Part shown: positions 24,129-46,342 of the stretch, piece after piece
How positions within the stretch are numbered: position 1 is the first letter of the stretch
Layout of the letters: each line of letters opens with the position of its first letter
Assembly (NCBI RefSeq): GCF_044647545.1
Contig: NZ_CP172818.1
DNA length: 64,000 nt
Source: Escherichia coli
Lineage (GTDB): Bacteria > Pseudomonadota > Gammaproteobacteria > Enterobacterales > Enterobacteriaceae
Strand: one strand, 5' to 3'
Notes under the pieces: model-generated
What the model saw: the letters and a program-made list of their open reading frames with translations, nothing else
What the model was told of the DNA's origin: nothing
Databases searched by the model: none
Position numbers and translations under genes: made by a program

Positions 24129-25412
24129 TTACAGACTTCTTGAAGGTTGCGCTGCTGTTACAACACGCGGTTGATCTTCCGCGGCATCTTCCAGTGCACT
24201 TAAATCACGGTCTTTCACTTCTGGCATTTTCAGCGCAGAGATTAAACCAATCACTGAATATGCCATGATCATAATGGCGATCGGATACCAGGATTCCGTC
24301 ATGGTGCAGAAAATACCCGCCAGGATAGGACCAAAACCGGAAGCGATAAGACCACCAATTTCTTTAGAAATAGCCATCCGGGTAAAGCGGTTTTTACAGC
24401 CGAACATTTCTGCCATGGTAATGTTTTCCAGAGCAAATAATCCCAGCACCGCACAGTTATGAATCACAATCAGTGCAACCATAATGGTGCTCGGGGCATA
24501 GCTTTTATCTACGATGATAGAAAGCATTGGCCACGCCAGCACAATCGCAGAGGTATTCATAATAATATACGGGATCCGGCGACCTATTTTATCGGATAAC
24601 CAACCAAGGAACGGAATGGTCATAAAGCCGAGAATCGAACTGATCATCAATGCATCTGTTGGAATTGCTTTGTTAAACAATAACGTCTGCACTAAATAGC
24701 CTGCAAGGAAAGTCTGAATTAAACCTGAGTTACCAGCCTGACCAAAACGCAGCCCTGTTGCCAGCCAGAAGGATTTGCTCTGGAACATGCTACCAGCAGG
24801 TGCAGGTTTTGCTGTCGGTTGATTGCTGTCGTTAACCTTCTCAAAGACCGGGCTTTCTTTCAGATTCATACGCAACCAGATAGCAAAGACCATCACGACA
24901 ACGCTCGCCAGGAACGGTATACGCCATCCCCACGCCAACAGTTCCTCTTTACTGAGAATGAAGAACATAAAGGCCCAGATTGCCGTTGCGCTCAAGGTTC
25001 CGCAGTTAGTCCCCATAGCAACAAATGAGGAGATAATTCCGCGCTTACCTTTTGGCGCATATTCCGCCAGCATCGTACCGGCACCGGAAATTTCCGCACC
25101 TGCACCCAATCCCTGAATAATACGCAGCGTCACCAGCAAGATGGGTGCAAAAACACCAATCTGTGCATAGGTCGGTAACACACCAATTAAGGTGGTACAG
25201 ATCCCCATCATGGTGATGGTAATAAAGAGTACTTTTTTACGCCCTATTCTGTCGCCCATTTTGCCGAAAATAAATGCTCCGACAATACGCGCCACATAAC
25301 CTGCACCGTAGGTTCCCATTGCCAGAATTAACGCCATTGCCGTTGATGATTCAGGAAAAAATATTTCATGAAACACTAACGCTGCGCCGAGCGAATATAA
25401 CTGGAAATCCAT
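24129..25412 (-). CDS. ydfJ: MFS transporter YdfJ, N-terminally truncated by prophage insertion (427-aa remainder)
   Basis: ORF starts at MDFQLYSLGAALVF, inside the first TM region; the missing N-terminus (MTIEKHERSTKDLVKAAVSGWLGTALEFMDF) lies at 46250-46342 on the far side of the prophage. Confidence 0.85.
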   Translation of the reverse strand: MDFQLYSLGAALVFHEIFFPESSTAMALILAMGTYGAGYVARIVGAFIFGKMGDRIGRKKVLFITITMMGICTTLIGVLPTYAQIGVFAPILLVTLRIIQGLGAGAEISGAGTMLAEYAPKGKRGIISSFVAMGTNCGTLSATAIWAFMFFILSKEELLAWGWRIPFLASVVVMVFAIWLRMNLKESPVFEKVNDSNQPTAKPAPAGSMFQSKSFWLATGLRFGQAGNSGLIQTFLAGYLVQTLLFNKAIPTDALMISSILGFMTIPFLGWLSDKIGRRIPYIIMNTSAIVLAWPMLSIIVDKSYAPSTIMVALIVIHNCAVLGLFALENITMAEMFGCKNRFTRMAISKEIGGLIASGFGPILAGIFCTMTESWYPIAIMIMAYSVIGLISALKMPEVKDRDLSALEDAAEDQPRVVTAAQPSRSL

Positions 25413-25416
25413 AATT
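25403..25416. repeat. attL core copy
   Basis: gaaatccataattc; 11 identical bases plus TTC shared with the right-end copy. Confidence 0.6.
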
Positions 25417-26198
25417 CACAGGTGTTTTTTCCCATCCTGTGGTTTCCTTGGCGTTTTCTAGGTTTTTTCAGATAGTTGCATTTTTTAAAAAGCATCCTAA
25501 GTTCGATCTCAGTGTCTATCTGGGGCCTATTTCTGTCCCATATATGCCCCAAAAAAAACTCCCCAACAGATAAGTAGTTTTTTCATGGATTTATGCGTAA
25601 AATCAAGAACGGCTGGAAATCATTCAATACTCACACTATCGAAAAATTTACCAGCCAACCGCAGCACGTTCTTGCATAAGGCGTGTCTGCGGTTTTTCAA
25701 CTATTCAGATACATCACTCCCATCACATTCATTCCTCCGCATCAAAGGCATATAGGCTATATCACCTTGATATTTTTCTTTTTCAGATAAAAACTGTTAT
25801 CTATGTATACTTTTAAACCCAATCCGTGTAGAGTCTCTGCATAAGATAGTTTACAGTTGCCGCTTCAGCTTGCGCCATAAACCGCCTGATTTTTGCTGCC
25901 ACCTGTTAGCATTCCTGTATACCTGAAACGACAATGTTTATCTACGAACTTTAAGAACACCCAAGATAAAAATTGTCAACTATATCATATATAACACATT
26001 ACTAATTCGAGGCTATATGAACAGCATACTGATAATCACATCTCTCCTTATCATATTCAGCATTTTTAGTCATGCCCTAATAAAATTAGGGATTGGCATA
26101 TCCAATAACCCAGACAAAACCGATGTATAAGTCAACATATCCTGAATCAGACATACAATATCGCAATGAAAATCAATAATATTTTAAGGAATATCTTC

Positions 26199-26432
26199 AT
26201 GAAATCAAAAGACACCCTAAAGTGGTTCCCTGCGCAGCTTCCTGAAGTAAGAATTATCCTAGGGGATGCTGTAGTGGAAGTAGCAAAACAGGGAAGACCT
26301 ATCAATACCAGAACATTGCTTGATTACATTGAAGGAAACATAAAGAAAAAATCATGGCTGGATAACAAAGAATTATTACAAACAGCGATATCAGTTCTTA
26401 AAGACAACCAAAATTTAAATGGTAAAATGTAA
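26199..26432 (+). CDS. ydfK: Qin prophage protein YdfK, 77 aa
   Basis: MKSKDTLKWFPAQLPEVRIILGDAVVEVAKQGRP... Confidence 0.8.
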   Translation: MKSKDTLKWFPAQLPEVRIILGDAVVEVAKQGRPINTRTLLDYIEGNIKKKSWLDNKELLQTAISVLKDNQNLNGKM

Positions 26433-26748
26433 TATAATAAACTTACTTTTTTATCATTTTTCCACTTTAACAACATTTTGCTCCACTTTTCCACGACCAA
26501 ACAACTTGAAATCTGGTTAAAATAACACGCAACACTATTCTTCTTCCTTGAGTCCGCCCGGAACTCGAAAAACAAACCGAGTTAAAGCCTTTTTTCACAA
26601 AATCGATTTTGGGTCTCACCAAAATTACGGGGTTGCATACGCATTCGTTTATTTTCGAACGTGTACATACAAATATGCACAAAAATAATCATAATTATTT
26701 TCTGAGATGCATTATGATATGAACACCAATTTCGTATAGAGTCTCACT

Positions 26749-44256: not shown

Positions 44257-44917
44257 CCGAAAACCTCTGTACCGACATCAAAACGGGCACAAAATACAGG
44301 CAGAAAGTTACCGATGAAAGAAAGCAAATCAAGCGCAATGATACTCTGACGAGTACGAGAAAACTGCAGTGATAACGGCAACAGAGAATGAAAAAAACAA
44401 AAAACAAAAAAAAAAAAAAAAAAAAAAAAAAAAAAAAAACAAAAAAAAACGCCTGCGTGTCAGAGCGGTGGCGCTGAAAACTGCCCTGATTGTGAAGGCA
44501 CTGCACAGGGCGAATCACTACCAGACGGCATCAAATAGTGAAACAATACAGGACGATCATGCTGGGAGAAATGGAACGCCAACTTCGACACACGATTTTG
44601 CGCCGTCTCCAGTGGAGTGGCTGACGGATAATGGTTCATGCTACCGGGCTAATGAAACACGCCAGTTCGCCCGGATGTTGGAACTTGAACCGAAGAACAC
44701 GGCGGTGCGGAGTCCGGAGAGTAACGGAATAGCAGAAAGCTTCGTGAAAACAATAAAGCGAGACTACATCAGTATCATGCCCAAACCAGACGGGTTAATG
44801 GCAGCAAAGAACCTTGCAGAGGCGTTCGAGCATTATAACGAATGGCATCCGCATAGTGCGCTGGATTACGCTCGCCACGGGAATATCAGCGGCACCTGGC
44901 TTGATAAAGGCAATTAA
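44233..44917 (+). pseudogene. insD: IS2 transposase (InsD/OrfB) remnant, C-terminal portion, degraded and interrupted by a poly(A) tract
   Basis: Translation ...[63 protein letters not shown]...[12 protein letters not shown] matches IS2 InsD; upstream portion is increasingly divergent. Confidence 0.7.
44391..44449. repeat. poly(A) tract: 59 nt with only three non-A bases, including an uninterrupted A34 run (44406-44439)
   Basis: Direct inspection; lies inside the IS2-like remnant between sequences corresponding to ...gtgataacgg and cgcctgcgtgtc... Confidence 0.9.
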
Positions 44918-45417
44918 GTGATAAGAGAAGTCTGAAAGAGAAATATCCGACAGGCGTGGAAAACCATGGAGGGAAATTACGTATCTGTTTTTTATAAAGG
45001 CGTAAGAGCAGGGAAAACCTGGGGGTCGAAAAAGGAAAAAAAAGGCGCGTTGCAGGTGAGCTACGCGCCTCTGTTTGTTACGCAATAAAAACTGGTGTTT
45101 TCGACTATGCAAAACAGTTTCCCTCCTCACGCAATCTGGAAAAATTTGGTGAGGCCCGACAAGATTTAACCATAAAAGAACTGGCTGAAAAATTTCTGGC
45201 ACTGAAAGAAACTGAAGTCGCAAAAACATCACTCAACACATACCGTGCCGTCATCAAAAATATCCTGAGCATAATCGGTGAAAAAAATCTTGCCTCATCG
45301 ATTAATAAAGAAAAATTACTGGAGGTTCGTAAAGAGCTACTGACTGGATACCAGATCCCCAAAAGTAACTATATTGTTACACAACCAGGGAGATCGGCTG
45401 TAACTGTAAATAATTAC

Positions 45418-46212
45418 ATGACAAATCTTAACGCCGTGTTCCAGTTTGGTGTTGATAACGGTTACCTGGCAGATAACCCGTTTAAGGGGATCTCGCCATT
45501 AAAGGAATCAAGAACCATTCCGGATCCTCTTTCGCGGGAGGAATTCATCCGTCTTATCGATGCGTGCAGAAATCAGCAAGCCAAAAATTTATGGTGTGTT
45601 TCTGTTTATACTGGCGTTCGCCCTGGTGAGCTGTGTGCACTTGGATGGGAGGACATAGATCTGAAAAATGGAACAATGATGATCAGGAGAAATTTAGCAA
45701 AAGACCGTTTCACGGTACCAAAAACACAGGCGGGAACCAATCGGGTCATTCATCTTATTAAGCCAGCAATCGACGCTCTCCGGAGTCAGATGACATTAAC
45801 GAGACTGAGCAAAGAGCATATCATTGATGTTCACCTCAGAGAGTATGGCAGAACAGAAAAACATAAATGCACCTTTGTTTTTCAACCTGAAGTGTCAGCG
45901 AGAGTAAAAAATTATGGTGACCATTTTACCGTTGACTCAATAAGGCAGATGTGGGACGCAGCGATAAAACGTGCCGGACTCCGCCATCGAAAATCATATC
46001 AGTCGAGACATACTTATGCCTGCTGGTCGCTGACAGCTGGTGCTAACCCGGCATTTATAGCAAACCAGATGGGCCATGCAGATGCGCAAATGGTATTTCA
46101 GGTATACGGAAAATGGATGTCTGAAAACAATAATGCACAGGTAGCTTTGTTAAATACACAGTTAAGCGAGTTTGCCCCAACCATGCCCCATAACGAAGCA
46201 ATGAAAAATTAA
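45418..46212 (+). pseudogene. intQ: defective prophage integrase IntQ (C-terminal catalytic domain only)
   Basis: 264-aa ORF with tyrosine-recombinase features (...HLIKPAIDALR..., ...RHTYACW...); upstream 44950-45417 has integrase-like N-terminal coding potential broken across frames. Confidence 0.8.
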
Positions 46213-46213
46213 T

Positions 46214-46342
46214 TTAATATTTATCAAATAGTTGACACGTATGACTCTTGAAATCCATAAATTCAAGCGCAGTGCCCAGCCATCCCGATACTGCTGCTTT
46301 CACCAAATCCTTAGTGCTTCTTTCGTGTTTTTCTATTGTCAT
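46214..46342 (-). pseudogene. ydfJ: N-terminal fragment of ydfJ separated from the gene body by the prophage
   Basis: Minus strand encodes MTIEKHERSTKDLVKAAVSGWLGTALEFMDF then prophage-derived residues; the EFMDF coding core is the repeated att sequence (46250-46264). Confidence 0.55.
46250..46264. repeat. attR core copy
   Basis: gaaatccataaattc, matching 25403-25416 apart from one extra A. Confidence 0.6.

Follow-up and report, generated by a model that had tools for sequence, protein, structure and literature searches.

How did the transporter gene ydfJ come to be cut in two in this strain of Escherichia coli, and do the short repeats at the cut mark the exact ends of the prophage that separates its halves? 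The question arises in a window of 64,000 nucleotides, the whole stretch of DNA analysed here (contig NZ_CP172818.1 of RefSeq assembly GCF_044647545.1), in which a prophage of 20.8 kb lies between the body of ydfJ and its displaced 5' end. Our answer is that the repeats are almost certainly the attachment (att) cores of an mEp460-like lambdoid phage that integrated in ydfJ and is now the cryptic prophage Qin. Four things seen directly carry this answer: the repeats themselves, a ydfJ that can be reconstituted, a predicted attP that is contiguous in live phages, and an element collinear with Qin. No evidence contradicts it, and the case for this strain is made from sequence.

The two copies of the repeat differ by one base in length. 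The 15-nt copy, GAAATCCATAAATTC, was found at 46250-46264, exactly where the initial annotation had placed it, whilst the 14-nt copy, GAAATCCATAATTC, lies at 25404-25417, one position to the right of the interval 25403-25416 given there. Each matches the window once, against chance expectations from shuffled sequence of 0.04 and 0.01 matches, and a gapped alignment of the two gives 14/15 identities. The longest ungapped string common to both is the 11-mer GAAATCCATAA, which occurs only at these two places in the window; 0.06 copies are expected by chance, and two or more matches were seen in 0/100 shuffles. The cores were placed as follows.

25404..25414, no strand: att core at the int-distal junction (attR, P-O-B' in lambda terms), GAAATCCATAA; the 14-nt repeat runs to 25417.
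46250..46260, no strand: att core at the int-proximal junction (attL, B-O-P'), GAAATCCATAA; the 15-nt repeat runs to 46264.

The minus strand of the right copy reads GAA TTT ATG GAT TTC, and the repeat does therefore encode EFMDF, as had been proposed. The initial annotation also had the two parts of ydfJ in their right places: an open reading frame (ORF) of 427 aa at the left junction (24129..25412, minus strand) begins MDFQLYS, and one of 42 aa at the right junction (46214..46342, minus strand) begins MTIEKHERSTKDLVKAAVSGWLGTALEFMDF. Homology to intact ydfJ ends exactly at the repeat on both sides, and at 25404..25414 the core coincides with the break of homology both to intact ydfJ and to phage attP. 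The reading frame of a tyrosine recombinase stops at 46212, 37 nt ahead of the right repeat.

An uninterrupted ydfJ of 1368 nt lies between ydfI and rspB in strain PS10-3 (NZ_CP096837.1), and the two parts in the window can be rejoined to match it. The expectation of one continuous ORF of about 455 aa held, with a correction to the join, since fusing 46342..46250 literally to the body repeats MDF, for a total of 458 aa. When the 28 displaced codons (46342..46259) are placed ahead of the 427-codon body (25412..24129), the result is a 455-aa ORF closed by a single stop at its end; its product is identical to the intact 455-aa YdfJ of PS10-3 at 452/455 positions. The rejoined protein has the features of an MHS-family MFS transporter, with a length of 455 aa and MFS_1 over residues 21-342 (profile positions 2-303). 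The gene as it stands in the window is without residues 1-28.

24129..25412, minus strand: ydfJ' body, residues 29-455 of the MHS-family MFS transporter YdfJ, with its ATG inside the att core.
46214..46342, minus strand: ynfP-like ORF of 42 aa, consisting of ydfJ codons 1-31 and 11 phage-derived codons (KSHTCQLFDKY).
46400..47443, minus strand: rspB, which in uninterrupted strains is the chromosomal gene immediately upstream of ydfJ.

The ydfJ' body is 98.2% identical to K-12 ydfJ (b1543) and matches Pfam MFS_1 with E=2.7e-37; codons 1-31 of the ynfP-like ORF are the 28 displaced codons (46259-46342) plus MDF from the core. Judged by these alignments, ydfJ' and the ynfP-like ORF are the separated halves of a single transporter gene. 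The equivalent K-12 ORF, ynfP (b4534), has 36 aa, a phage-arm substitution giving an earlier stop. A gap of 57 nt separates rspB from ydfJ, and the insertion parts ydfJ'-ydfI from whatever drives them upstream; the truncated transporter has presumably lost its function. The loss of 28 residues, including part of the first transmembrane helix (TM1), agrees with the domain match: MFS_1 begins at residue 21 of the intact protein (profile position 2) and a hydrophobic stretch covers residues ∼13-42, which puts the cut inside the first helix of the MFS domain. By hydropathy this stretch is broad and weakly hydrophobic with no sharp TM1 boundary, and in a single-sequence AlphaFold2 model of rejoined YdfJ (mean predicted local distance difference test score, pLDDT, 41) TM1 could not be placed.

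The attP of the integrating phage was predicted as 800 nt made up of the right-junction phage flank, one core and the left-junction phage flank, and was searched for in a phage collection. It is contiguous in phage mEp460_ev081, identical at 800/800 nt and directly downstream of the phage integrase gene, and PhiR42_1, HannyBb and Tritos match it with 98.8-99.4% identity. The attP of mEp460_ev081 reads ...GACTCTT GAAATCCATAA TTCACAGG..., and the phage gene order exo-xis-int-attP-ydfK-pin-tfa-stf is, as expected, a circular permutation of the prophage map. The common core is found in attP in four phage genomes, in attB in PS10-3 and 2009 genomes (see below), and in attL and attR in the window.

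The repeats had been described as exact att cores. They are att sites, but the ungapped identity of attP and attB is only 11 bp, GAAATCCATAA, and beyond it attP has two T's where attB has three. Aligned in the ydfJ sense, the sites read:

attB: GCGCTT GAATTTATGGATTTC CAGTTA
int-side junction: GCGCTT GAATTTATGGATTTC AAGAGT
body-side junction: ACCTGT GAATT-ATGGATTTC CAGTTA

Thus the attB form is retained at the right (int-side) junction and the attP form at the left (body-side) one, which points to exchange within GAAATCCATAA. Tyrosine recombinases swap strands inside a short overlap region, of 6-8 bp in lambda-type integration, and by that mechanism the exchange points would lie within these 11 bp; the products predicted by such an exchange are an attP carrying CTCTTGAAATCCATAATTCACAGG and an attB carrying CTGGAAATCCATAAATTCAAGC.

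One could instead read the 14/15 mismatch as decay, one T having been lost from a once perfect 15-bp duplication in an old, grounded prophage. Qin is decayed, the loss of a single base in a run of T's is a common mutation, and the copies do align at 14 of 15 positions once a gap is allowed. The live phages, however, carry two T's in their own attP, GAAATCCATAATTCAC, 100% identical to the window, and the three-T GAAATCCATAAATTC is in none of the four full-length phage matches. Moreover, the same junction pair with its one-base difference is present in K-12 and in a prophage of ∼50 kb in strain 20AR1039 that has an intact 426-aa integrase and xis, so that the 'missing T' is a native difference between attP and attB; and an attB form on the right with an attP form on the left is what exchange in an 11-bp identical stretch would give. 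We regard decay as very improbable. A duplication of target sequence by a transposase, or a chance repeat, with the real boundaries of the element elsewhere, is more improbable again, to the point of being negligible. Transposons too have short flanking direct repeats, and the element does hold an IS2 remnant and a serine invertase, but the free phage has a single copy of the core, beside a tyrosine integrase, the signature of attP × attB recombination and not of an insertion-made duplication, and neither the halt of ydfJ homology exactly at the repeat on both sides nor the chance expectation of 0.06 copies fits such an origin. Two limits apply to our reading: the statement about TM1 is based on the Pfam domain start and hydropathy only, and the integrase lesions that would explain the immobility of the prophage sit in a patch of doubtful quality.

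The consequence for ydfJ can also be read differently: the insertion may not simply have killed the gene, the 427-codon remainder being expressed from the core ATG and under selection, with the N-terminal fragment made as the small protein YnfP. All five genomes compared have the 427-codon ORF undamaged, and the ratio of non-synonymous to synonymous differences per site (pN/pS) is 0.014-0.076 in every pair, including the window and K-12, in both of which ydfJ is split (22 synonymous and 1 non-synonymous differences). The K-12 annotation retains ydfJ (b1543) and ynfP as coding sequences, and a preprint has ydfJ among the genes differentially expressed upon DicC induction. The low pN/pS is no proof of function, however, because the divergence may predate the insertions, and recombination with intact alleles may equally have produced it. 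A simple scan of 25300-26200 for promoters and terminators turned up nothing promoter-like on the ydfJ strand within 800 nt upstream, and a phage-borne promoter driving ydfJ' is thus unsupported; there is also no obvious Shine-Dalgarno sequence before the ATG, the protein would be without the N-terminal part of the first MFS helix, and the Prokaryotic Genome Annotation Pipeline (PGAP) calls the ydfJ fragment a pseudogene in other genomes. On balance we find this reading unlikely. Slightly less likely still is its fuller form, in which ydfJ', started at Met29 in the core, would be translated and held under purifying selection in the prophage-bearing majority of E. coli, the 31 displaced codons having become YnfP. 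If this were true, phage occupancy would remodel or switch a sugar-acid transporter locus (rspAB-ydfJ-ydfI) and not just destroy it, and with excision-competent relatives the switch would be reversible.

In the integration scheme that we favour, an mEp460-like lambdoid phage, with attP immediately downstream of int, would have integrated by tyrosine-integrase site-specific recombination of attP with an attB inside ydfJ codons 27-31. Strands would be exchanged within 11 bp, GAAATCCATAA on the plus strand of the window and TTATGGATTTC in the ydfJ sense, and since these are common to both partners the core would be duplicated at both prophage ends. The first 28 ydfJ codons, with any upstream promoter, would stay by rspB and int at the right junction, whilst codons 29-455 would stay by ydfI at the left junction and start, by chance, at the core-borne ATG of Met29. 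Later loss of all morphogenesis genes, xis and part of exo would have left the cryptic Qin of 20.8 kb.

Two further sequences near the junctions may have a part in this scheme.

25464..25478, plus strand: possible arm-type site for the integrase in the P arm, TTTTTCAGATAGTTG, repeated directly at 46220-46234.
46220..46234, plus strand: possible arm-type site for the integrase in the P' arm, TTTATCAAATAGTTG; like the P-arm copy it belongs to repeat family D5 of the phage attP region.

Their shared pattern, T(A/T)TCA(A/G)ATAGTTG, is repeated on both arms and may be an arm-type site. In lambda, attP and attB share a 15-bp common core, and recombination involves arm-type sites, Int, Xis and integration host factor (IHF). 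The element in the window resembles lambda in having a tyrosine integrase with an Arm-DNA-binding domain, next to and transcribed towards attP, and a short core duplicated at its ends. It differs in its core sequence and in its host site, which is within coding sequence, whereas that of lambda is the gal-bio intergenic region; and among arm-type, IHF and Xis sites only the candidate repeat CA(A/G)ATAGTTG was seen.

The interval between the cores contains the following.

25415..46249, no strand: Qin-type cryptic lambdoid prophage of 20.8 kb, with the head and tail genes all missing.
26749..27339, plus strand: pinQ serine invertase, a 196-aa ORF 99.5% identical to K-12 pinQ.
42623..42674, plus strand: DicF small RNA (Rfam RF00039, 76.7 bits).
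43318..44256, plus strand: truncated exonuclease gene (ydfE-like), in which homology to phage exo stops at 44240, ∼920 nt into a 2472-nt gene.
44234..44937, plus strand: IS2 remnant, in place of the 3' part of exo and the whole of xis.
44938..46212, plus strand: integrase pseudogene of an intQ-type tyrosine recombinase, from alignment to the 426-aa integrase of 20AR1039 and to K-12 intQ.

The prophage begins with ynfT, ydfK, pinQ, tfaQ, stfQ', nohA', cspI, lysis genes and cspB/F, continues through quuQ/ydfU, rem, hokD, relBE, flxA, an immunity region of dicC/dicA type and DicF, and ends with dicB, ydfD, exo', IS2' and int'. Rfam adds two cspA-type leaders within it. This order is that of Qin (Kim) of K-12 MG1655 (NC_000913.3, 1632277..1652745), which occupies the same site with an identical 14/15 repeat pair, runs likewise from ynfT/ydfK/pinQ to intQ, has ydfJ b1543 and ynfP b4534 at its ends, and shares the large deletion of head and tail genes. 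The flanks are ydfI, ydfJ', rspB and rspA, the junctions at the repeats are identical to those of K-12, and 39/41 K-12 genes tested, ydfI through rspA, keep their K-12 order, ydfT/ydfU, ydfE' and intQ' included; gene content and order thus agree down to the same deletion of morphogenesis genes, with the dicA/dicC region only partly conserved. The 'cryptic prophage Qin' feature of MG1655 begins on the left repeat and ends one base short of the right one.

The two prophages are nevertheless only 95-98% identical, and by sequence comparison the window carries a non-K-12 variant of Qin. The dicC/dicA and ydfA-C segments (40875-42419) are swapped for an mEp460_ev081-like immunity region (99.7%), and the exo'-IS2 and IS2-int' junctions differ, the window retaining ∼150 nt more than K-12 of each of exo and int. 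Segments 30595-33739, covering the lysis/gnsB region, and 40484-44240, covering the immunity region through exo, are 99.7-99.9% identical to mEp460_ev081 and much less like K-12 Qin; their few differences from the phage are mostly single-base insertions or deletions. This pattern suggests recent recombination of a grounded Qin with an mEp460-like phage.

The phages themselves provide the intact counterpart. mEp460_ev081 (LR597641.1), a functional temperate phage from infant faeces according to the literature, has the same attP and the same 3' part of int as the window, over the 800 nt already described. Together with PhiR42_1, HannyBb and Tritos it is represented by records of 45-49 kb with head, tail and replication genes, xis and an unbroken int frame, relative to which the element in the window has lost ∼25 kb.

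The integrase frame of the window, next to the att core, matches Pfam Phage_integrase (3.3e-18) and Arm-DNA-bind_2 (5.7e-8). From ∼45060 to its stop (∼1150 nt) it differs from the mEp460_ev081 integrase gene by a single base. At its start GAG stands in place of ATG, and deletions of 2, 1 and 3 nt within the first ∼100 nt lead to one in-frame TAA. Upstream, the 3' 1.9 kb of exo and the whole of xis are replaced by the IS2 remnant. The description of the integrase as defective is therefore right in that xis has been lost and int has no start codon, but all of the point lesions in int fall within an A-rich patch that looks to be of low quality, and the defect is secure only for the missing xis and upstream region.

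That patch, 44234-45060, comprises the IS2 remnant together with the initial ∼120 nt of int. Identity to IS2 is only 81-90% with many insertions and deletions, a poly-A-rich insertion of ∼60 nt lies at 44390-44450, and the junction between the IS2 end and the int start appears to be a blend of both sequences. When 44230-45100 was searched by megablast against all complete E. coli genomes, no record covered at least 80% of it, and an exact-pattern scan of GTDB representative genomes for the IS2/int junction, AAGTCTGAAAGAGAAATATCCGACAGGCGTGG, gave 0 matches; neither search thus confirmed the patch in an independent assembly. A second, A/C-rich patch of low complexity, with A runs of up to 28, lies at ∼5150-5500 next to yneG and glsB, where it replaces ∼500 nt in the 5' part of dgcF/yneF, a core gene for a diguanylate cyclase; the degradation increases gradually and stops abruptly at GATAGCATGTTCGC, where normal sequence resumes. 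The dgcF/yneF region is normal in more than 5400 other genomes, and in RefSeq assembly BS-04 (NZ_CP172819.1) the sequence degrades between the same end points in a similar though not identical way, which PGAP flags as a frameshift. Both patches are probably sequencing or consensus artefacts. A retroelement origin of the poly-A patch (a poly-A tail or a diversity-generating element) was considered and rejected, as the second patch degrades a conserved core gene and the dgcF/yneF locus of BS-04 shows a similar, non-identical degradation.

Occupancy of the site was surveyed in 5426 complete E. coli genomes with a 201-nt probe spanning attB, a site being counted as unoccupied if at least 80% of the probe was covered. 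The probe was intact in 2009/5426 genomes; among the matches listed, those in split-site genomes break at the core, and the ydfJ body followed by a Qin-like P arm was found in 2932 genomes. By this measure ydfJ is a heavily used integration hot spot, occupied in ∼63% of complete E. coli genomes.

The insertion site is correct but already known, from the MG1655 annotation and from two papers. Ramisetty & Sudhakari 2019 (PMC6379469) described how Qin entered the 5' end of ydfJ by site-specific integration, with loss of the ydfJ promoter and a protein without its 28 N-terminal codons. The S7 Fig of Nakamura et al. 2021 (PMC8112680) concerns the attP of ydfJ prophages, obtained by polymerase chain reaction (PCR) of the excised form; there attP, attL, attR and attB are aligned and an att sequence of 18 or 19 bp is defined, compared with the 11 bp ungapped, or 14/15 with one gap, found here. 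As that paper's account of them has it, these PPydfJ prophages of Shiga toxin-producing (STEC) and enteropathogenic (EPEC) E. coli are lambda-like and lie in ydfJ, as does the element in the window, and they carry type III effector genes. What the present analysis adds is the 100% match of attP to a live phage, the exact 11-bp core and a warning on the two artefact-like patches. The ends of the Qin-type prophage are fixed in this strain at 25404/25415 to 46249/46260, and living phages with the same attP and a near-identical integrase gene are identified in the mEp460_ev081 group. Knowing the 11-bp core and its native one-base offset helps in the design of excision or occupancy PCRs. The value lies mainly in correct annotation and current understanding is unchanged.

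Some minor observations concern the same locus in other strains. Over ydfI, ydfJ' and the left arm of the prophage, strain IMT16316 matches the window with 100% identity, and it has an IS1 in the P arm (locus coordinates 23182-23879) and a full set of tail genes beyond pinQ, so that the same left junction flanks prophages in very different states of decay. Three arrangements of IS2 were seen at the 5' end of this type of integrase gene: in EC01440 a full IS2 follows int nt ∼88 (locus coordinates 4025-5460), in K-12 the IS2E remnant abuts int nt ∼128 (locus coordinates 22344-23049), and in the window the remnant (44234-44937) abuts the int start. This variety may reflect either a repeated target of IS2 or successive deletions. 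Rfam also reports the IS009 RNA family at 27471-27668 (minus strand), in the prophage between pinQ and tfaQ, and the Hfq-binding small RNA STnc560 at 16334-16547 (minus strand), outside the prophage.

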